From assembly GCF_003334255.1 (NCBI RefSeq), contig NZ_QOWU01000007.1: a stretch of DNA of 64,000 nucleotides; one strand, given 5' to 3'. Shown piece by piece: positions 5,140 through 45,200 of the stretch. Position numbers and translations under genes: made by a program. The notes beneath the pieces are model-generated. The model worked only from the letters and a program-made list of their open reading frames with translations, was not told the DNA's origin and searched no databases. Position 1 is the first letter of the stretch; each line of letters opens with the position of its first letter. The stretch comes from Escherichia coli (GTDB lineage Bacteria; Pseudomonadota; Gammaproteobacteria; Enterobacterales; Enterobacteriaceae).

Positions 5140-6072
5140 TTACTTATTCTGACGCTGTGATGACATGAGAGACGTCAGAAGCCGGTCTTTTTCCTGCCAC
5201 AATGAGTTCAGCCATTGCTGAAAATGGCGCTTAAAGCTTTTGTCATTGATGTAGTCGCCATGTAACTCATCGGCAATAGGCTGTAAATCCACATGTACGA
5301 CAATCCGCGTCAGTTTACCGCTTAACATATCGAAGAACGGCTGACGGTTATTGTCCGGATAACACAGCGTAACATTAAGCAGTTTATCGAATTGTTTACC
5401 CAGTACATTTAGCGCCATCGCAATGCCTGCCGCCTTTGGTGGCAACAAGTTTTGAAAAGTGGAGTGGGTTTGCTGATGTTTTTCTTGCGTGAAACGGGAG
5501 CCTTCAACGAAATTGACAATGGTGGTGGGATGCAGGCGAAACTTTTCACAAGAACGCCGAGTGGTTTCAACATCTTTACCACGTCGCTCCGGATGACGTA
5601 ATAAATAAGCGCGGGAATAACGCTTCATAAACGGCATATCCAGCGACCAGCACGCCAGGCCAAGAAATGGCACCCAGGCCAGCTGTTGCTTGAGGAAATA
5701 TTTATTCATCGGAATGTGCTTACGAAACAGCACGCACAGTACGACAATATCTGCCCAACTACGGTGGTTACAAATAAGCAGATACCAGTTCTTCTTACTT
5801 AACCCTTCCAGCCCGTGAACTTCCCATTGAAGGTGTGGGTTCAGATGCAGTAATACCGCCAGACCTTCACACCAGCAATACATCATAAAATCACAAAAAC
5901 GCGAAACCTTTCGCCAAATGACTGGCACAGGTAGCAATAGTTTTACAATCCCGGCAATGATGATCGGGACGGAACAAAAAATAGTGACCAAAATGGTCAA
6001 TACGATACTCAGCAAAAGGGTTATCGCAGCGAGTATTCTCGTCATAATGAATTTATTCAAAAGGTTAGCCAT
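5140..6072 (-). CDS. yihG: Putative lysophospholipid acyltransferase YihG (PlsC family)
   Basis: Track ORF 5140-6096 trimmed to the Met at MANLLNKF (310 aa). Contains the HRSWADI acyltransferase motif (HxxxxD) and N-terminal TM helices. Confidence 0.85.
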
Positions 6073-6435: not shown

Positions 6436-9222
6436 ATGGTTCAGATCCCCCAAAATCCACTTATCCTTGTAGATGGTTCATCTTATCTTTATCGCGCATA
6501 TCACGCGTTTCCCCCGCTGACTAACAGCGCAGGCGAGCCGACCGGTGCGATGTATGGTGTCCTCAACATGCTGCGCAGTCTGATCATGCAATATAAACCG
6601 ACGCATGCAGCGGTGGTCTTTGACGCCAAGGGAAAAACCTTTCGTGATGAACTGTTTGAACATTACAAATCACATCGCCCGCCAATGCCGGACGATCTGC
6701 GTGCACAAATCGAACCCTTGCACGCGATGGTTAAAGCGATGGGACTGCCGCTGCTGGCGGTTTCTGGCGTAGAAGCGGACGACGTTATCGGTACTCTGGC
6801 GCGCGAAGCCGAAAAAGCCGGGCGTCCGGTGCTGATCAGCACTGGCGATAAAGATATGGCGCAGCTGGTGACGCCAAATATTACGCTTATCAATACCATG
6901 ACGAATACCATCCTCGGACCGGAAGAGGTGGTGAATAAGTACGGCGTGCCGCCAGAACTGATCATCGATTTCCTGGCGCTGATGGGTGACTCCTCTGATA
7001 ACATTCCTGGCGTACCGGGCGTCGGTGAAAAAACCGCGCAGGCATTGCTGCAAGGTCTTGGCGGACTGGATACGCTGTATGCCGAGCCAGAAAAAATTGC
7101 TGGGTTGAGCTTCCGTGGCGCGAAAACAATGGCAGCGAAGCTCGAGCAAAACAAAGAAGTTGCTTATCTCTCATACCAGCTGGCGACGATTAAAACCGAC
7201 GTTGAACTGGAGCTGACCTGTGAACAACTGGAAGTGCAGCAACCGGCAGCGGAAGAGTTGTTGGGGCTGTTCAAAAAGTATGAGTTCAAACGCTGGACTG
7301 CTGATGTCGAAGCGGGCAAATGGTTACAGGCCAAAGGGGCAAAACCAGCCGCGAAGCCACAGGAAACCAGTGTTGCAGACGAAGCACCAGAAGTGACGGC
7401 AACGGTGATTTCTTATGACAACTACGTCACCATCCTTGATGAAGAAACACTGAAAGCGTGGATTGCGAAGCTGGAAAAAGCGCCGGTATTTGCATTTGAT
7501 ACCGAAACCGACAGCCTTGATAACATCTCTGCTAACCTGGTCGGGCTTTCTTTTGCTATCGAGCCAGGCGTAGCGGCATATATTCCGGTTGCTCATGATT
7601 ATCTTGATGCGCCCGATCAAATCTCTCGCGAGCGTGCACTCGAGTTGCTAAAACCGCTGCTGGAAGATGAAAAGGCGCTGAAGGTCGGGCAAAACCTGAA
7701 ATACGATCGCGGTATTCTGGCGAACTACGGCATTGAACTGCGTGGGATTGCGTTTGATACCATGCTGGAGTCCTACATTCTCAATAGCGTTGCCGGGCGT
7801 CACGATATGGACAGCCTCGCGGAACGTTGGTTGAAGCACAAAACCATCACTTTTGAAGAGATTGCTGGTAAAGGCAAAAATCAACTGACCTTTAACCAGA
7901 TTGCCCTCGAAGAAGCCGGACGTTACGCCGCCGAAGATGCAGATGTCACCTTGCAGTTGCATCTGAAAATGTGGCCGGATCTGCAAAAACACAAAGGGCC
8001 GTTGAACGTCTTCGAGAATATCGAAATGCCGCTGGTGCCGGTGCTTTCACGCATTGAACGTAACGGTGTGAAGATCGATCCGAAAGTGCTGCACAATCAT
8101 TCTGAAGAGCTCACCCTTCGTCTGGCTGAGCTGGAAAAGAAAGCGCATGAAATTGCAGGTGAGGAATTTAACCTTTCTTCCACCAAGCAGTTACAAACCA
8201 TTCTCTTTGAAAAACAGGGCATTAAACCGCTGAAGAAAACGCCGGGTGGCGCGCCGTCAACGTCGGAAGAGGTACTGGAAGAACTGGCGCTGGACTATCC
8301 GTTGCCAAAAGTGATTCTGGAGTATCGTGGTCTGGCGAAGCTGAAATCGACCTACACCGACAAGCTGCCGCTGATGATCAACCCGAAAACCGGGCGTGTG
8401 CATACCTCTTATCACCAGGCAGTAACTGCAACGGGACGTTTATCGTCAACCGATCCTAACCTGCAAAACATTCCGGTGCGTAACGAAGAAGGTCGTCGTA
8501 TCCGCCAGGCGTTTATTGCGCCAGAGGATTATGTGATTGTCTCAGCGGACTACTCGCAGATTGAACTGCGCATTATGGCGCATCTTTCGCGTGACAAAGG
8601 CTTGCTGACCGCATTCGCGGAAGGAAAAGATATCCACCGGGCAACGGCGGCAGAAGTGTTTGGTTTGCCACTGGAAACCGTCACCAGCGAGCAACGCCGT
8701 AGCGCGAAAGCGATCAACTTTGGTCTGATTTATGGCATGAGTGCTTTCGGTCTGGCGCGGCAATTGAACATTCCACGTAAAGAAGCGCAGAAGTACATGG
8801 ACCTTTACTTCGAACGCTACCCTGGCGTGCTGGAGTATATGGAACGCACCCGTGCTCAGGCGAAAGAGCAGGGCTACGTTGAAACGCTGGACGGACGCCG
8901 TCTGTATCTGCCGGATATCAAATCCAGCAATGGTGCTCGTCGTGCAGCGGCTGAACGTGCAGCCATTAACGCGCCAATGCAGGGAACCGCCGCCGACATT
9001 ATCAAACGGGCGATGATTGCCGTTGATGCGTGGTTACAGGCTGAGCAACCGCGTGTACGTATGATCATGCAGGTACACGATGAACTGGTATTTGAAGTTC
9101 ATAAAGATGATGTTGATGCCGTCGCGAAGCAGATTCATCAACTGATGGAAAACTGTACCCGTCTGGATGTGCCGTTGCTGGTGGAAGTGGGGAGTGGCGA
9201 AAACTGGGATCAGGCGCACTAA
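6436..9222 (+). CDS. polA: DNA polymerase I
   Basis: 928-aa ORF with 5'-3' exonuclease, 3'-5' exonuclease and polymerase domains (e.g. [17 protein letters not shown] motifs). Confidence 0.98.
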
Positions 9223-9368
9223 GATTCGCCTGAACATGCCTTTTTTCGTAAGTAAGCAACATAAGCTGTCACGTTTTGTGATGGCTATTAGAAATTCCTA
9301 TGCAACAACTGAAAAAAAATTACAAAAAGTGCTTTCTGAACTGAACAAAAAAGAGTAAAGTTAGTCGC

Positions 9369-9477
9369 GTAGGGTACAGAGGTAAGATGTTCTATCTTTC
9401 AGACCTTTTACTTCACGTAATCGGATTTGGCTGAATATTTTAGCCGCCCCAGTCAGTAATGACTGGGGCGTTTTTTA
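9369..9477 (+). ncRNA. spf: Spot 42 small regulatory RNA
   Basis: Exact match to the 109-nt Spot 42 sequence (GTAGGGTACAGAGGTAAGATGTTCTATCTTTCAGACC...GCCGCCCCAGTCAGTAATGACTGGGGCGTTTTTTA) including its intrinsic terminator. Confidence 0.95.
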
Positions 9478-9498
9478 TTGGGCGAAAGAAAAGATCCG

Positions 9499-9602: not shown

Positions 9603-10235
9603 TTATTCGCCGTCCTGCGTTTCTTCTACAGGCTGCATCTCGCTAAACCAGGTATCCAGTTTCTGCCGCAGCTTGTCCACGCCTTGTTTCTTCAACGAAG
9701 AAAACGTTTCAACCTGCACATCACCGTTAAACGCCAGTACAGCTTCACGCACCATATTCAATTGCGCTTTACGTGCGCCGCTTGCCAGTTTGTCCGCTTT
9801 GGTCAGCAGCACCAGAACGGCGATATTGCTGTCTACCGCCCACTCAATCATCTGCTGATCCAAATCTTTCAGCGGATGGCGAATATCCATTAGCACCACC
9901 AGACCTTGCAGGCTCTGACGTTTTTCGAGGTATTCGCCGAGCGCACGCTGCCATTTGCGCTTCATCTCTTCCGGGACTTCCGCATAACCGTACCCAGGCA
10001 AGTCAACCAGACGCTTGCCGTCAGCCACTTCAAACAGGTTGATAAGCTGGGTGCGCCCTGGGGTTTTTGAGGTACGAGCCAGGCTTTTCTGGTTAGTCAG
10101 CGTGTTCAGCGCGCTGGATTTACCTGCGTTGGAACGGCCTGCAAAAGCCACTTCAATTCCGGTATCGGAAGGTAGGTGGCGAATATCAGGCGCACTCATC
10201 ACAAAATGCGTCTGTTGATAATTCAAATTAGTCAA
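9603..10235 (-). CDS. engB: Ribosome biogenesis GTPase EngB (YihA)
   Basis: 210-aa ORF with G1 motif GRSNAGKSS and G3 DLPGYG. Confidence 0.95.
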
Positions 10236-10505
10236 AGCGGTCGTCTCCGTCAGTCAAAGCTTTGTGGCGATTATACCTGAACCATAATAAAAGGCGGATT
10301 TTTCGGCGTGAGCGTTGTAAGTAAAAGCCATACGCTTTGTGAGACATTGCCGATAGTCTTTATGCGAAATAGCAGAGAAAATTCTGCGATGCATGTCAAA
10401 TAAGCTATATAAATCAGTGAATTGCTTTTATATAAAACTCTGAAAATGTGCAAATACTGATGGCGGTTGATTGTTTGTTTAAAGCAAAGGCGTAAAGTAG
10501 CACCC

Positions 10506-10750
10506 ATAGAGCGAGGACGCTAACAGGAACAATGACTCAGGATGAGGGTCAGGAGCGCCAGGAGGCGAAGACAGAGGATTGTCAGGAAGACAAACGTCCG
10601 GAGACGTAATTAAACGGAAATGGAATCAACACGGATTGTTCCGGCTAAAGGAAAAACAGGGTGTGTTGGCGGCCTGCAAGGATTGTAAGACCCGTTAAGG
10701 GTTATGAGTCAGGAAAAAAGGCGACAGAGTAATCTGTCGCCTTTTTTCTT
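10506..10750 (+). ncRNA. csrC: CsrC small RNA (CsrA-sequestering)
   Basis: About 245 nt with many GGA motifs (AGGATGAGGGTCAGGAGCGCCAGGAGGCGAAGACAGAGGATTGTCAGGAAGACA...) ending in a strong terminator (GGCGACAGAGTAATCTGTCGCCTTTTTTCTT). Boundaries approximate. Confidence 0.85.
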
Positions 10751-10816
10751 TGCTTGCTTTCTGTTAGATTCCGCCGCAAATCTATACTGAATAAAACGGC
10801 TAAAAGACGAACCATT

Positions 10817-11326
10817 ATGAAACCATCATCTTCAAACTCACGCAGCAAAGGTCATGCAAAAGCGCGTCGAAAAACACGCGAGGAGCTGGATCAGGAAGCT
10901 CGTGATCGCAAGCGTCAGAAAAAACGTCGTGGTCATGCGCCGGGCAGCCGCGCAGCGGGCGGAAACACCACGTCAGGCAGCAAAGGCCAGAACGCACCAA
11001 AAGATCCACGTATTGGCAGTAAAACCCCTATTCCATTGGGCGTGACTGAAAAAGTCACCAAACAGCACAAACCGAAGAGTGAGAAACCTATGCTTTCACC
11101 GCAGGCGGAGTTGGAATTACTGGAAACGGATGAGCGTCTGGATGCGCTGCTGGAACGTCTGGAAGCAGGCGAAACCCTGAGTGCCGAAGAGCAATCCTGG
11201 GTGGATGCTAAACTGGATCGTATTGATGAGTTGATGCAGAAACTCGGCCTCTCTTATGACGATGACGAAGAAGAGGAAGAAGACGAGAAGCAAGAAGACA
11301 TGATGCGTCTGCTGCGGGGCAACTAA
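10817..11326 (+). CDS. yihI: Der GTPase-activating protein YihI
   Basis: Track ORF 10754-11326 trimmed to [13 protein letters not shown] (169 aa). Highly basic N-terminus and acidic C-terminal tail ([14 protein letters not shown]). Confidence 0.88.
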
Positions 11327-12995: not shown

Positions 12996-13103
12996 TTTTG
13001 TAGGCCGGATAAGGCGTTTACGCCGCATCAGGCATCTGAGCATGATGCCTGATGCGGCGCTGGTCGCGTCTTATCAGGCCTACGACTTTCTCCGCATCCG
13101 GCA
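12996..13103. repeat. REP/BIME cluster
   Basis: Repeated GTAGGCCGGATAAGGCGTTTACGCCGCATCAGGC-type palindromic units in alternating orientation. Confidence 0.85.
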
Positions 13104-15845: not shown

Positions 15846-15959
15846 CATTATAGCTTTTTACGGATAAAAAGCGCGAAGCATCAGAGAATTGACGGAGAAA
15901 AAAGCCCATGCAGAGATGGGCTACAGATAGCTGACAAACTTCACGTTGGAGAGCGACTC

Positions 15960-16027
15960 ACCTGCTCCGGCCTACCACATCATCACCGTGTAGGCCGGAT
16001 AAGACGCATTTGCGTCGCATCCGGCGT
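15960..16027. repeat. REP elements in the glnA-glnL intergenic region
   Basis: GTGTAGGCCGGATAAGACGCATTTGCGTCGCATCCGGCG palindromic unit. Confidence 0.8.
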
Positions 16028-16094
16028 GATGTGCTTGCCACCGATCCCAGGCCTGCCAGAGACAGGCGAAAAGTTTCCACGGCAACTAAAACAC

Positions 16095-17635: not shown

Positions 17636-17727
17636 GCGCACCATCGTGCAAAAGGGCTGCACCACGATGTGAATGTTGCACCAATATAGTGCTTCAATGG
17701 AAACATTAAGCACCATGTTGGTGCAAT
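17636..17727. promoter_or_regulatory. NtrC enhancer sites upstream of glnA
   Basis: Multiple TGCACC-N5-GGTGCA-like dyads (GCACCATGTTGGTGCA, TTGCACCAATATAGTGC, TGCACCACGATG). Confidence 0.8.
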
Positions 17728-17876
17728 GACCTTTGGATAACCCTTTTTATGCTCCGTGAAAGCGATCACAAAGGGACTCTGCAATACTTGTTTGCGGAGG
17801 ATGTTTGTGATCCTGTTTTGTAGTGCGATTAATCCGTGTACAATAACGCGCTATTTCTAATGCCTGAGGCAAAGTT

Positions 17877-19700
17877 GTGATCGAAAAATTGCGTAATATC
17901 GCCATCATCGCGCACGTAGACCATGGTAAAACCACCCTGGTAGACAAGCTGCTCCAACAATCCGGTACGTTCGACTCTCGTGCCGAAACCCAAGAGCGCG
18001 TGATGGACTCCAACGATTTGGAGAAAGAGCGTGGGATTACCATCCTCGCGAAAAACACCGCTATCAAATGGAATGATTACCGTATCAACATCGTTGATAC
18101 CCCGGGGCACGCCGACTTCGGTGGTGAAGTTGAACGTGTAATGTCCATGGTAGACTCAGTGCTGCTGGTGGTTGACGCATTTGACGGCCCGATGCCGCAA
18201 ACGCGCTTCGTAACCAAAAAAGCGTTTGCTTACGGCCTGAAGCCGATTGTTGTTATCAACAAAGTTGACCGCCCTGGCGCGCGTCCTGATTGGGTTGTGG
18301 ATCAGGTATTCGATCTGTTCGTTAACCTCGACGCGACCGACGAGCAGCTGGACTTCCCGATCGTTTACGCTTCTGCGCTGAACGGTATCGCGGGTCTGGA
18401 CCACGAAGATATGGCGGAAGACATGACCCCGCTGTACCAGGCGATTGTTGACCACGTTCCTGCGCCGGACGTTGACCTTGACGGTCCGTTCCAGATGCAG
18501 ATTTCTCAGCTCGATTACAACAGCTATGTTGGCGTTATCGGCATTGGCCGCATCAAGCGCGGTAAAGTGAAGCCGAACCAGCAGGTCACTATCATCGATA
18601 GCGAAGGCAAAACCCGCAACGCGAAAGTCGGTAAAGTGCTGGGCCACCTCGGTCTGGAACGTATCGAAACCGATCTGGCGGAAGCTGGCGATATCGTTGC
18701 GATCACGGGCCTTGGCGAACTGAACATTTCTGACACCGTTTGCGACACGCAAAACGTTGAAGCGCTGCCGGCACTCTCCGTTGATGAGCCGACCGTTTCT
18801 ATGTTCTTCTGCGTTAACACCTCGCCGTTCTGCGGTAAAGAAGGTAAGTTCGTAACGTCTCGTCAGATCCTGGATCGTCTGAACAAAGAACTGGTACACA
18901 ACGTTGCGCTGCGCGTAGAAGAAACCGAAGACGCCGATGCGTTCCGCGTTTCTGGTCGTGGCGAACTGCACCTGTCTGTTCTGATCGAAAACATGCGTCG
19001 TGAAGGTTTCGAACTGGCGGTATCCCGTCCGAAAGTTATCTTCCGTGAAATCGACGGTCGTAAACAAGAGCCGTATGAAAACGTGACTCTGGACGTTGAA
19101 GAACAGCATCAGGGTTCTGTAATGCAGGCGCTGGGCGAACGTAAAGGCGACCTGAAAAACATGAATCCAGACGGTAAAGGCCGCGTACGTCTCGACTACG
19201 TGATCCCAAGCCGTGGTCTGATTGGCTTCCGTTCTGAGTTCATGACCATGACTTCCGGTACTGGTCTGCTGTACTCCACCTTCAGCCACTACGACGACGT
19301 ACGTCCGGGTGAAGTGGGTCAGCGTCAGAACGGCGTACTGATCTCTAACGGTCAGGGTAAAGCGGTCGCGTTCGCGCTGTTCGGTCTGCAGGATCGCGGT
19401 AAGCTGTTCCTCGGTCACGGTGCAGAAGTTTACGAAGGTCAGATTATCGGTATTCATAGCCGCTCTAACGACCTGACTGTAAACTGCCTGACCGGTAAGA
19501 AACTGACCAACATGCGTGCTTCCGGTACTGACGAAGCCGTTGTTCTGGTTCCGCCTATCCGCATGACTCTGGAACAAGCTCTGGAGTTCATCGATGATGA
19601 CGAACTGGTAGAAGTGACTCCGACCTCTATCCGTATTCGTAAACGTCACCTGACGGAAAACGATCGTCGCCGCGCCAACCGCGCACCGAAAGACGATTAA
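17877..19700 (+). CDS. typA: Ribosome-associated translational GTPase BipA/TypA
   Basis: 607-aa ORF with a GTG start. EF-G-like GTPase ([21 protein letters not shown]). Confidence 0.97.
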
Positions 19701-19716
19701 TTTCGTTTTTTAGTCA

Positions 19717-19751
19717 TAAAAAACCTGCCAGCGATGGCAGGTTTTTTTTTG
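19717..19751 (+). terminator. Rho-independent terminator after typA
   Basis: AAAAACCTGCCAGCGATGGCAGGTTTTTTTTTG. Confidence 0.85.
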
Positions 19752-19916
19752 CCTGTCGTGAGCGCACACCAATGCGAGTATCTCCCTTATAAGTCTGTGG
19801 TTACGTCAATAGAGAGCTTTGTCACAATTATCTGCAAAGTCATACGCCGTTAATTGCTTTCTTTTTTGGCGTAAGCGTAAGATGCTTCATCTGGTTTAAA
19901 CCAAAAGGATTAAACA

Positions 19917-26709: not shown

Positions 26710-28746
26710 TTAGATGCTTTTTAACGACGCGAACAGTGCCGCCCATTCGCTATCGGCGCGATAAAAGACCGGCGGCTTGCCGATGGGCGCATTAACGGTA
26801 ACTTCCCCGCCCCGGAACGCTTCACCCGTCCAGGCGTGGACCCAGTTATCCTCCGGCAGATAGAGCGTCCAGTCGCTACGGCCTTCTTCATGCACCGGAG
26901 CGACCAGAATGTCGCGACCTAACAGGTACTGATATTTCAGGGTGTAAGTGTGCGCATCGTCTTCGTAATGCAGGAACAGCGGGCGCATAACCGGCAGGCC
27001 GGACTTCGCATTCAGCGCGACGGCCTCTTTCAGGTAAGGTTTCAGGGTGGTGAAGACGGTGGTCATACGGGCGAAATGGGCGATGGTTTCTGCGTCGCCG
27101 TCAAACTGCCAGTTGTCGCCAGGACGGTTACCTTCGTGGGTGCGCATCATCGGCGTGAAGGCGCTGAAATCGCACCAGCGCAGCAGCAGCTCTTTGCTGC
27201 GCTTCATCTCAAACAGGGTGGTGTAACCGCCAATGTCGCTGTGGTGCAGGCCATGTCCGGTCATTGCCAGCGACAGCGCCGCCGGGACAACCGACGCCAG
27301 GCCATCGTCGAGACTCCAGTCGACGTTCTGGTCGCCCGCCCACATCATGGTGGAGTATTTCTGGCTACCGGTAGAACCGGCGCGCATAAAGAAAAGGATC
27401 TCGCCGAGCTTGCCCGTTTCTTCAAGGGCTTCGTAGTTACACTTCGCCCACAGCGCAGGCCAGGCGTTATGCATAATTTCGGCACTGACGCCGTTATGCA
27501 GGTACGTGTCGGTGGGCAGATACTCGCCGAAGTCAGCCATCCAGCCGCCGCAGCCGAGTTCAATCATGTTCTTTTTGATCACTTCCTTGAACCAGGCGTA
27601 GGCTTCTGGATTAGTGAGATCGACAACGCCGCCGTAAAACTCGCCAAACTCCACCAGATAGTCACCGCCAGAGGCATCTTTTGCCAGATAGCCGTGTTGT
27701 GCCGCTTCTTCGCAGAGATCTTTATCGCTGGCAACATACGGGTTGATATAGGCCAGGAACTGCACGCCCTCCTGATTCCACTGCTTAATGCGTGAATCCA
27801 GTTGCGGGTAGTTTTCGCTGTTCCACTTCCAGTTCCACATCACGCGTTTGCCAAAAGAGGTCATACGAATACCGGACCAGTCCTGCGCCCAGATGCCGTT
27901 GACCTTCACGCCCGCGTTACGCATGGTGTCCAGTTTCTTCTGGCACACTTCCGTCCCGCCCTGAATGCCGAGCGTTACTCCGTCATAAATCCAGTCGGGC
28001 AGTTCTGGCTGGCGTCCCAGCAGGGCGGTTAATTTTTCCAGCAGGGAAATGTATGTGTCAGCACATTCAAAACGCAGCGTTGCTTTGTCTTCCCACAGCG
28101 CCAGTTCATGGTATTCCGGGGCACTAAAGTCGAAGTTCATATAGCAACTGTTATCAACATGGCAGTAATACTTCTGCGTGCTGACAAACGTAGGCTGTGG
28201 GAAGAAAGTCCAGTAATAGTCGCCGCCCGCATTTTCTTTGCAGTCGGCCTGCCAGGTGACATAGGTTTGTTTGTTGCGACCAACGCCTTGTTCACTGGTC
28301 CATAGCGGGAACGGTTTGCCACGCAGATCGAAGTAGGAAAACTGTTCGCCGCAGCCGTAGATATGGTCCTCTGGTTGAGCGGCAAGGCGCAGCCAGATAC
28401 GGTTGTGGTTAAGGTTGTCGTTTTGTAGTTCCAGCAATAAACGCCCCTGATCGTCGGCAGAGATATTCAGCGTGGCGCTAATGTCAGAACCACGGCTGAA
28501 ATGAATTAACCAACCATCCGGTGACTGGCTGACGATGGCGTCGGTAAGCGCAATTTTCTCCTGTAGTTTATCTTTAATGCTGAAATTACCGCGGAACATA
28601 TCGATATCCGCTATACCTGAGCCAATCCATAAACAAGGATTATCTTTGCTATGGGTTAAAATAAGACGTTGTTGAAAATGTAGGGTAAAACTGTCGTTAT
28701 TCTGATGAAATTGAAAATCTAATAACTGTGGACGTGGCGTATCCAT
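26710..28746 (-). CDS. yihQ: Sulfoquinovosidase (glycoside hydrolase family 31)
   Basis: 678-aa ORF with GH31 motifs (WMADFGE region). Confidence 0.92.
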   Translation of the reverse strand: MDTPRPQLLDFQFHQNNDSFTLHFQQRLILTHSKDNPCLWIGSGIADIDMFRGNFSIKDKLQEKIALTDAIVSQSPDGWLIHFSRGSDISATLNISADDQGRLLLELQNDNLNHNRIWLRLAAQPEDHIYGCGEQFSYFDLRGKPFPLWTSEQGVGRNKQTYVTWQADCKENAGGDYYWTFFPQPTFVSTQKYYCHVDNSCYMNFDFSAPEYHELALWEDKATLRFECADTYISLLEKLTALLGRQPELPDWIYDGVTLGIQGGTEVCQKKLDTMRNAGVKVNGIWAQDWSGIRMTSFGKRVMWNWKWNSENYPQLDSRIKQWNQEGVQFLAYINPYVASDKDLCEEAAQHGYLAKDASGGDYLVEFGEFYGGVVDLTNPEAYAWFKEVIKKNMIELGCGGWMADFGEYLPTDTYLHNGVSAEIMHNAWPALWAKCNYEALEETGKLGEILFFMRAGSTGSQKYSTMMWAGDQNVDWSLDDGLASVVPAALSLAMTGHGLHHSDIGGYTTLFEMKRSKELLLRWCDFSAFTPMMRTHEGNRPGDNWQFDGDAETIAHFARMTTVFTTLKPYLKEAVALNAKSGLPVMRPLFLHYEDDAHTYTLKYQYLLGRDILVAPVHEEGRSDWTLYLPEDNWVHAWTGEAFRGGEVTVNAPIGKPPVFYRADSEWAALFASLKSI

Positions 28747-42241: not shown

Positions 42242-45200
42242 TTACACCTTTTCCACATTCACAAGGAAGGACTTAAACTCCGGCGTCTGCGTGTTCGCAT
42301 CACCAACGAATGGCGTTAAAGTATTGGCAATAAAGCCTTTTTTAGCTACGCCTTCATAGCCCCAGTGAATCGGAATACCGATGGTATCGATATCTTTGCC
42401 GTTCGCTTTCAGCGTGCGAATACGTTTGGTCACCACCGCTTTGGCTTTGATATAGCCACGGTTGGAGGAGACTTTCACGGTATCGCCCTGGGCAATGCCA
42501 AGTTTATTCGCCAGCGACTCCCCGATTTCCACAAACTGCTCTGGCTGCAAAATCGCGTTCAACAGCGCGTGTTTGGTCCAGTAGTGGAAGTGCTCGGTCA
42601 GACGATAGGTGGTTCCGACATACGGGAACTTATCGGCTTTACCCAATGCTTCGGCGTCGTCTTTAAAGATACGTGCAGCCGGGTTCGAGATAACGTTTGG
42701 ATGCAGCGGGTTAGTTCCCAGCGGCGTTTCAAACGGCTCGTAGTGTTCCGGGAACGGACCTTCCGCCATCTTATCGAGGGCAAACAGACGCCCCATGCCT
42801 TCCTGCTGCATGATAAACGGCCCGACGCCGCTACCCGGAGGCGCTGCGCTGTAGTCCGGAATATCCCAGCCGGTCCACTTAGTGCCGTCCCATTTCAGCA
42901 ACTGACGCTTCGGATCCCACGGGTTACCCTGCGGATCTGCGGAGGCGCGGTTATACAGAATGCGGCGGTTAAGCGGCCATGCCCATGCCCAGCCCAGCGT
43001 GTTACCGAGGCCAGACGGATCGGCGTTATCACGGCGTGCCATCTGGTTGCCTTCCGGCGTCCAGCTACCGGCGAAAATCCAGCAGCCACAGGAGGTTGTA
43101 CCGTCATCGCGCAATTGGGCGAACGAACTAAGTTGTTGGCCTTTCTTGACGATAACCGCACCGGTTGCCGGATCGGTAATATCGGCCAGCGCCTTACCGT
43201 TGCTCTCCATCGCCACTTCTTCTGAAGATGGCTCATGCGGAATGGCGTAGTTCCATGTCATGTTGAGCACCTGGTCCGGGTTCGCGCCACCCTGTTCGGC
43301 ATACATCTTGCGCAAGCGCAGGAAGATACCGGAGAGGATCTCGCCGTCAGTCAGCGCAATCCCCGGGGCGTCCGCACCTTTCCAGTGCCACTGTAACCAG
43401 CGACCTGAGTTAACGATAGAACCGTTCTCTTCCGCGAAGCAGGTCGATGGCAGACGGAACACTTCGGTCTGGATCTTCGACGAGTCAACTTCGTTCAGCT
43501 CACCGTGGTTCTGCCAGAAGTTAGAGGTTTCAGTGTTCAGTGGGTCGATGGTGACGAGGAACTTCAGTTTCGACAGACAACCGATCACTTTGTTTTTGTT
43601 CGGGAATGAGGCAACAGGGTTAAAGCCCTGGCAGATATAGCCATTGACCTTGCCCTCTTTCATCATCTCGAAGTATTGCAGGACGTCGTAGCCTTTATCC
43701 CACTTCGGCAACCAGTCAAAGCCCCAGCTATTTTCCGCCGTCGCTTTATCACCAAAGAAGGCCTTCATCATAGAGACGAAGAATTTCGGGTAGTTGCCCC
43801 AGTAGTTTACCTGGCCTTCCAGCAGCGGTTTTGGCGTGTTGGCGGTAAGGTAGGTTTGCAGATCGGTCTGCTTCTCGCTTGGCAGCGTCATGTAACCTGG
43901 CAGGCTCTGCGACAGCAGCCCCAGGTCCGTCAGCCCCTGAATATTGGAGTGACCGCGCAGGGCGTTAACGCCGCCGCCTGCCATCCCCATATTGCCGAGC
44001 AGCAGCTGGATCATCGCCATCGTACGAATGTTTTGCGCACCAACGGAGTGTTGCGTCCAGCCGAGGGCATACAGGAACGAGGCAGTTTTATCGTGAGCAC
44101 TGGTTTCTGCGATGTATTCGCAGACTTTCAGGAACGCGTCTTTTGGCGTACCACAGATGTTTTCAACCACATCTGGCGTGTAGCGGGAAACGTGCTGTTT
44201 CAGCAAGTTCCACACGCAGCGCGGATGTTGCAGCGTGGTATCGCGTTTGGCGAAGCCGTTTTCGTCCAGTTCATAAGTCCAGGAGGATTTATCGTACTTG
44301 CGTTTTTCCGCGTCGTAGCCGGTGAACAGGCCATCTTCAAAGCCGTAATCCTCACGCACGATCAGGCTGGCGTTGGTATAGGCTTCGGTGTATTCGCGGT
44401 TGAATTTTTCATTGTTCAGCAGGTACAGCAATACGCCTGACAGGAAAGCAATGTCAGTACCGGAACGAATAGGGGCATAGTAGTCAGCTACCGCCGCCGT
44501 ACGCGTAAAGCGAGGATCGATCACAATCAGCTTCGCGCCGTTGTGAATTTTGGCTTCCATCGCCCAGCGGAACCCGACCGGGTGAGCTTCAGCGGCATTA
44601 CCGCCCATCACCACGACGAGGTTGGCGTTCTTGATGTCGACCCAGTGGTTGGTCATCGCACCGCGACCAAATGTTGGAGCAAGACTTGCTACCGTTGGTC
44701 CGTGTCAGACACGCGCCTGGTTGTCGACCGCGAGCATACCCAGCGCGCGGGAGAATTTTTGCGTTAAATAGCCGGTTTCGTTACTCGACGCGGAAGCACA
44801 CAGCATCCCGGTGGAGAGCCAGCGGTTAACAGTCACGCCTTCGGCGTTTTGCGCAATGTAGTTAGCATCGCGGTCTTCTTTCATCAGTTTGGCGATGCGA
44901 TCAAACGCCTCTTCCCAACTGATTTGCTGCCATTTATCAGAACCTGGCGCACGGTATTCCGGAAACTTCAGACGGCTTTCGGAGTGGATGAAATCCACCA
45001 GGCCAGCGCCTTTCGGACAAAGTGCACCGCGGTTGACCGGGTGATCCGGATCGCCTTCGATATGGAAGATAGATGCTTTGGCGTTTTTTGCTCCGTCACC
45101 GAGGCTGTACATCAACAGCCCACAGCCTACGGAACAATAGGTGCAGGTATTACGGGTTTCGCGGGTGCGCAGCAGTTTATACTGCCGGGTTTCCGCGAGT

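Follow-up and report, generated by a model that had tools for sequence, protein, structure and literature searches.

The csrC gene, encoding the non-coding RNA CsrC, in the yihA–yihI intergenic region of an Escherichia coli contig

In enteric bacteria CsrA acts globally and post-transcriptionally to regulate carbon storage, biofilm formation, motility and virulence, and CsrC is one of two RNA sponges that set its activity. The closest known counterpart of the present locus is csrC of E. coli K-12 (b4457; RF00084; Weilbacher et al. 2003, cited through PMC7652899), which is annotated as an RNA of 246 nt. CsrB (RF00018, clan CL00106) resembles CsrC in that it sequesters CsrA through GGA loops, is activated by UvrY, ends in an intrinsic terminator and decays through CsrD and RNase E, but it is longer, carries about 18–22 sites (18 according to PMC8151843) and is encoded near syd; homology between the two RNAs is undetectable by BLAST (PMC1488887). 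The UvrY repeat of csrB is near-perfect and is accompanied by dependence on IHF, whereas csrC has no IHF dependence (PMC4682653). The RsmX/RsmY/RsmZ RNAs of Pseudomonas and CsrB1-3 of Vibrio likewise work as protein sponges, with CsrA/RsmA homologues as their targets (PMC7652899, PMC1488887), and are transcribed under GacA/VarA, the orthologues of UvrY, although their sequences, sizes and loci are unlike those of CsrC. CsrD-dependent turnover is found only in Enterobacteriaceae, Shewanellaceae and Vibrionaceae (PMC7652899).

The window analysed here is a 64,000-nucleotide stretch of E. coli contig NZ_QOWU01000007.1 (NCBI RefSeq assembly GCF_003334255.1). Positions 10506–10751 on the plus strand are identical at 246 of 246 bases to csrC of MG1655 (NC_000913.3, 4051036–4051281), and the identity extends over 4001 nt around the gene. 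The flanking genes, terminator, UvrY site and 14 GGA motifs are likewise the same as in K-12, so that the locus shows no difference from the described one. A scan of the entire window at the Rfam gathering threshold returned RF00084 at 10506–10759 (+) with 278.7 bits (E = 6.4e-88) against a gathering score of 61, and the match covers model positions 1–255 of 255. Because the exact K-12 sequence is present, the feature is the csrC gene itself, and we put the probability that 10506–10751 is csrC, encoding the 246-nt non-coding RNA CsrC, at about 98%; no evidence contradicting this identification was found. The first-pass annotation of this DNA had named a CsrC sRNA between engB and yihI, had proposed a covariance-model search as the check and had called the finding known biology, all of which is borne out by the full-length Rfam match, by the identity to the K-12 gene and by the earlier characterization of csrC in K-12. 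Its span of 10506–10750 (245 nt) has the correct start, but ends one base before the K-12 annotation. The presence of csrC here is already known biology, and established knowledge is unchanged.

The gene lies downstream of polA (6436–9222, +), spf, which encodes Spot 42 (approximately 9369–9479, +), and yihA, also called engB (9603–10235, −); yihA is followed by a 581-nt gap that contains csrC, then by yihI (10817–11326, +) and hemN. CsrC had been put forward as the explanation of this large intergenic region, which is correct for the 246 nt of the gene but not for the remaining 270 nt upstream and 65 nt downstream, which are otherwise filled. In the upstream 270 nt are the promoter of csrC and its UvrY site, together with a TATAAT on the opposite strand. 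Naming csrC explains a stretch that lacks a conserved open reading frame, and prevents it from being misread as a gene desert or as the gene for a small protein.

The plus strand of 10506–10750 carries 14 GGA motifs, 10 of which are AGGA and six CAGGA, spaced 6–32 nt apart, compared with two on the minus strand. The initial estimate of "at least nine" was therefore true but an undercount, and the number found equals the published count for CsrC (PMC8151843). Fourteen is the maximum over all 245-nt segments on both strands of the 64 kb (mean 3.1, standard deviation 1.9 per strand). The csrC region is also purine-rich, with 157 of its 245 bases being A or G (64%), and dinucleotide-preserving shuffles of the region contain 8.85 GGA on average, with 47 of 5000 having at least 14. 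Much of the enrichment is thus owed to purine-rich composition, and the excess of GGA over base composition is modest but real. The next-densest stretch in the window, with 12 GGA, is found at 27748–28012 (−) in the coding strand of yihQ, the gene for sulfoquinovosidase; it lies within an open reading frame and has no terminator, so GGA density by itself is not diagnostic.

Conservation was assessed with a 20-mer from the CsrC RNA, which matched 89 genome loci. A csrC orthologue with 72–99% identity is carried by 81 of these loci, from 81 species of Enterobacteriaceae, the family to which this probe limits the orthologue sample, and the yihA←csrC→yihI arrangement is retained in all 81 wherever the flanks are present, a position that had been reported earlier (PMC1488887). 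The other eight matches, in unrelated GC-rich genomes labelled Halomonas, Nocardioides, Pseudokineococcus and others, lack csrC and were rejected as chance matches. Within E. coli, csrC is present at 95% identity or more in 5425–5426 of 5426 complete genomes. Orthologues carry 12–16 GGA motifs on the sense strand (median 14) and 0–2 on the antisense strand (median 0), and in an alignment of 55 sequences, no two of which share 95% identity or more, 13 of the 14 sites have a GGA at or beside the corresponding position in 50 or more of the sequences. This pattern of GGA motifs is the most robust conserved feature of CsrC. Two oddly labelled loci were noted in the collection. Contig CACSKA010000012.1 (L049), labelled Chryseobacterium sp. 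18061 (Bacteroidota), has a typical enterobacterial yihA–csrC–yihI locus and encodes a YihA that is 90% identical to that of E. coli, and its label is most likely explained by contamination or by mislabelling of the assembly; the other (L015) belongs to a metagenome-assembled genome named "Proteobacteria bacterium".

All 14 sites can be placed on the Rfam consensus structure of the plus-strand transcript. Site 1 (10515–10517) is in a hairpin loop and is kept at its position or within a few nucleotides in 53 of the 55 orthologues, while site 2 (10526–10528, CAGGA) in a single-stranded linker, site 3 (10540–10542, CAGGAUG) in a hairpin loop and site 6 (10576–10578), also in a hairpin loop, occur in 55 of 55. 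Site 4 (10552–10554, CAGGAG) is in a linker and site 5 (10561–10563, CAGGAG) in a 4-nt hairpin loop with P(unpaired) of 1.00; the invariance of these two sites (55/55 for site 4) and of helix 3 is forced, since they fall inside the 20-mer used for the search. Site 7 (10585–10587, CAGGAA), in a linker, is found in 50 of 55 orthologues, and site 8 (10600–10602), in the hairpin loop of helix 5 (10594–10606), which shows compensatory changes, in 51. Sites 9 (10616–10618) and 10 (10622–10624) are both in linkers, site 11 (10633–10635) is partly paired at the edge of an internal loop in a long helix, and site 12 (10650–10652) is paired in the Rfam structure but unpaired in the thermodynamic ensemble. 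Site 13 (10680–10682, AAGGAU) occupies an Rfam hairpin loop and matches the exact alignment column in all 55 sequences. Site 14 (10712–10714) is at the base of the terminator stem with P(unpaired) of at most 0.04, is kept in 29 of 55 orthologues and is probably not a free CsrA site.

In the consensus structure 11 of the 14 motifs are thus fully unpaired, with six located in hairpin loops and five in linkers that are single-stranded; of the remaining three, one is partly paired, another is paired and the last is in the terminator stem. This agrees with the expectation that the motifs should lie mostly outside paired regions. In the thermodynamic ensemble computed for the single sequence, seven of the 14 sites have P(unpaired) above 0.6 at all three bases, and P(unpaired) averages 0.61 over GGA bases versus 0.42 over the whole RNA. 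Neither result that the first-pass annotation had named as refuting the CsrC reading, a missing Rfam match or pairing of the GGA motifs in every plausible fold, was obtained. The single-sequence minimum free energy fold pairs several motifs (sites 1, 9, 11, 13 and 14); its energy of −86 kcal/mol makes CsrC far more stable than shuffled sequences (z = −6.9). An intrinsic, Rho-independent terminator occupies 10711–10750 (+), with a 16–18 bp stem, a GUAA loop and a U-run: the stem has 18 pairs, of which a perfect 16-nt core (10713–10728 with 10733–10748) encloses the 4-nt loop, and a T-run follows in the DNA. The strong terminator that had been noticed at the 3′ end is therefore confirmed, and terminator and GGA motifs together match the CsrA-titrating architecture that had been proposed. 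In vivo, CLIP-seq peaks of CsrA have been seen on CsrC (PMC5694010).

When the Rfam structure is laid on the 55-species alignment, 84.4% of cells are paired, versus 42–50% in a control in which the 3′ partners were slid by 1–3 columns. Of 59 pairs, 10 show compensatory changes, which involve helices 1 (GC to AU or the reverse in 12 sequences), 5 (UA and CG, 17 sequences), 6 (AU and CG, 14–17 sequences) and 10, which is the terminator (AU and UA, five sequences). The terminator is 98.6% paired across the 55 species; helices 2 and 6 are only 59–63% paired in the alignment. A de novo RNAalifold consensus recovered three of the ten Rfam helices, namely the invariant hairpin, the hairpin that precedes the terminator and the terminator itself, and also gave an implausible long-range helix that used bases past the terminator. 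Given this recovery and the low pairing of helices 2 and 6, the fine structure of CsrC as drawn in the Rfam helices is weakly supported.

Upstream of the annotated 5′ end, reading of the sequence suggests a −35 hexamer TTGTTT at 10471–10476 (+; −35 to −30) and a −10 hexamer TAAAGT at 10493–10498 (+; −13 to −8), the latter 7 nt before the 5′ end and separated from the former by a 16-nt spacer. TTGT and GTAAAGT are each at least 95% conserved, the former across 78 aligned upstream regions, and we infer that the two hexamers form the csrC promoter. In a simple promoter scan the csrC promoter stayed below threshold, because the hexamers fit the consensus at 8 of 12 positions. Farther upstream, the 18-nt imperfect inverted repeat TGTGAGACATTGCCGATA at 10338–10355 (+; −168 to −151) exactly matches the csrC site of UvrY, the regulator of the BarA-UvrY system, that was defined by ChIP-exo and DNase I footprinting (PMC4682653), and a TGTAAG half-site at 10316–10321 (+), 16 bp upstream of the repeat, fits the same report. 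The sequence of the UvrY site is thus present at this csrC in its published form, with binding and activation as described in that work (PMC4682653). Of 77 orthologous loci, 67 have a TGT[GA]AG[AC] motif in the interval from −200 to −120. Binding of CRP at the csrC promoter is reported at second hand (PMC5694010).

Taken together with the literature, these elements suggest a mechanism in which CsrC would be transcribed rightward from a sigma-70-type promoter (−35 TTGTTT, −10 TAAAGT), activated by phosphorylated UvrY through the imperfect inverted repeat that lies some 160 bp upstream, with transcription ending at the strong intrinsic terminator. Roughly twelve GGA motifs, displayed in small hairpin loops and single-stranded linkers, would mimic the CsrA-binding sites of mRNAs; one CsrA dimer may bridge two such sites, so that a single CsrC could sequester several dimers. 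Sequestration would lift CsrA control of mRNA targets in glycogen synthesis, biofilm formation, motility and other processes. Binding and antagonism of CsrA by CsrC have been published for this exact sequence (PMC5694010, PMC7652899) and would be expected of the RNA encoded here. The level of CsrC would be set on the one hand by BarA-UvrY-dependent synthesis, which CsrA indirectly stimulates in a negative feedback loop; BarA-UvrY activation of csrC and indirect stimulation of csrB/C transcription by CsrA are both on record (PMC7652899; PMC5876332). On the other hand, it would be set by decay that RNase E initiates, that needs CsrD and that is triggered when glucose is available. In the published account, CsrD bound by unphosphorylated EIIA-Glc overcomes the protection that CsrA affords against RNase E (PMC7652899; PMC5876332), and epistasis data for CsrD have been presented (PMC5876332). 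Turnover of CsrC through CsrD and RNase E is taken from this literature (PMC7652899, PMC5876332) and presumably applies to the present locus.

Three other readings of the stretch were weighed against csrC. If it encoded a small protein, the GGA motifs would simply follow from codon content, and there is indeed a single 39-codon open reading frame with a TTG start at 10579–10698, as well as a RefSeq/PGAP CDS feature in all 40 sampled E. coli genomes. PGAP itself, however, flags that CDS as "frameshifted; internal stop", and the 39-codon frame is intact in only four of 55 orthologues, broken elsewhere by frequent indels that are not multiples of three and by in-frame stops, while the RNA features are conserved. 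The frame has no NCBIfam match, and no obvious argument from Shine-Dalgarno spacing was seen for its TTG start. A protein-coding function is thus very improbable. A separate candidate, in which the EHEC "novel gene" X067 reported near yihI (PMC4765031) would be a translated frame within csrC, was rejected, and X067 does not lie in csrC: the csrC region of EDL933, whose CsrC RNA differs from that of the window by one SNP, contains no 174-nt open reading frame; the table entry "-22(yihI)" in that paper denotes a predicted promoter upstream of yihI.

It is exceedingly unlikely that the RNA is of the CsrB type (RF00018) or belongs elsewhere in the CsrB/RsmB clan. CsrB and CsrC do share clan CL00106, architecture and mode of action, and lower-scoring matches of the same clan overlapped the csrC region and were suppressed by the search tool, but CsrC is the top-scoring member over its full length and the sequence is that of K-12 csrC. 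The neighbourhood of yihA and yihI is diagnostic of csrC, whereas csrB lies near syd (PMC1488887), and the upstream repeat is the weaker form found at csrC, unlike the TGTGAGAGATCTCTTACA of csrB (PMC4682653). We give hardly any credence to the remaining reading, in which GGA density arises by chance or composition in a purine-rich spacer that merely holds an upstream gene's terminator and does not function as an RNA. In its favour, dinucleotide shuffles of the region already reach about nine GGA, and the yihQ coding region attains 12 on one strand. Yet no gene reads into the csrC terminator, since yihA is on the opposite strand and points away, and the motif positions, the strand bias (median 14 versus 0) and the promoter are conserved in 55–80 species while the surrounding spacer diverges. 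Direct experimental literature on csrC (PMC4682653, PMC7652899, PMC5694010) likewise speaks for identification of the stretch as csrC.

The rest of the intergenic gap contains two further conserved elements. On the yihA side, a perfect TATAAT at 10275–10270 (−), about 35 nt upstream of the TTG start of yihA (engB), lies inside the block GATTATACCTGAACC, whose conservation among species is at least 95%. This TATAAT is likely to belong to the yihA promoter, divergent from csrC. On the yihI side, the csrC terminator is followed by a 45-nt block at approximately 10757–10800 (TTTCTGTTAGATTCCGCCGCAAATCTATACTGAATAAAACGG) with at least 95% identity per column in 80 Enterobacteriaceae species; terminator and yihI ATG stand a fixed 57–69 nt apart. 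By comparison, mean column identity is 76% in the CsrC body, YihI protein is approximately 43–68% identical outside Escherichia, and the region upstream of csrC is also far less conserved than the block. The block includes TATACT at 10783–10788, and TCTATACT within it is likely to be a −10 element; a promoter predicted by PlatProm at 22 bp upstream of the start codon of yihI (PMC4765031) fits TATACT, and the predicted transcription start is about 10795.

The block at 10757–10800 is a probable promoter or operator of yihI. We regard it as a long shot that it is instead an undescribed regulatory element, such as a regulator site or an unusual promoter, that might couple expression of YihI to transcription or termination of csrC. 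YihI is the GTPase-activating protein of Der, with a role in ribosome assembly. No description of the block was found in the literature consulted, and an RNA fold of the yihI leader (10752–10840) was no better than shuffled sequences (z = +0.49). Pairing of the CsrC 5′ end (10515–10529) with the conserved block at 10758–10772, an inverted repeat designated I3, was tested and rejected: the duplex beats shuffles in Escherichia only (z about −2.3), and over 81 sequences (the window and 80 loci) the median z is +0.54, with the 5′ segment being the best partner in 21%.

The annotation of the locus in RefSeq differs from that of the curated MG1655 record, which is the only one to name csrC. In PGAP/RefSeq records of E. 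coli (40 of 40, drawn evenly from 5425), a pseudo "hypothetical protein (frameshifted; internal stop)" corresponding to 10532–10698 stands in this place with no ncRNA feature, and the same pseudo feature appears on csrC at L001:1797–1963 and L095:2642–2808. Spot 42 is also absent from the PGAP records examined. Scans that lean on PGAP/RefSeq annotation would repeatedly flag the csrC locus.

The window as a whole is that of a K-12-like strain, with 11 SNPs relative to MG1655 in the first 53.8 kb. In the rhaD–rhaA intergenic region (approximately 53776–53820) it has just one REP-type unit, in contrast to MG1655, whose tandem array at this place is approximately 325–370 bp longer. A relaxed-threshold Rfam scan placed no other family in the body of the CsrC RNA, the sub-threshold matches being terminator look-alikes. 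Other RNA elements in the window are located at 9359–9477, 17688–17795, 19685–19753, 13003–13080, 62609–62686 (−), 44652–44710 (−) and 15898–16091 (−). Taken in this order, the Rfam matches comprise Spot 42, ES222 upstream of bipA, a marginal match to STnc370 at the 3′ end of bipA (55.6 against a threshold of 54), two naRNA4/REP-type elements and the fdoG SECIS. The last element is GlnZ, an sRNA annotated in K-12 in the 3′ UTR of glnA, which gave no Rfam match at the gathering threshold. The K-12 annotation places the small protein SpfP inside Spot 42.
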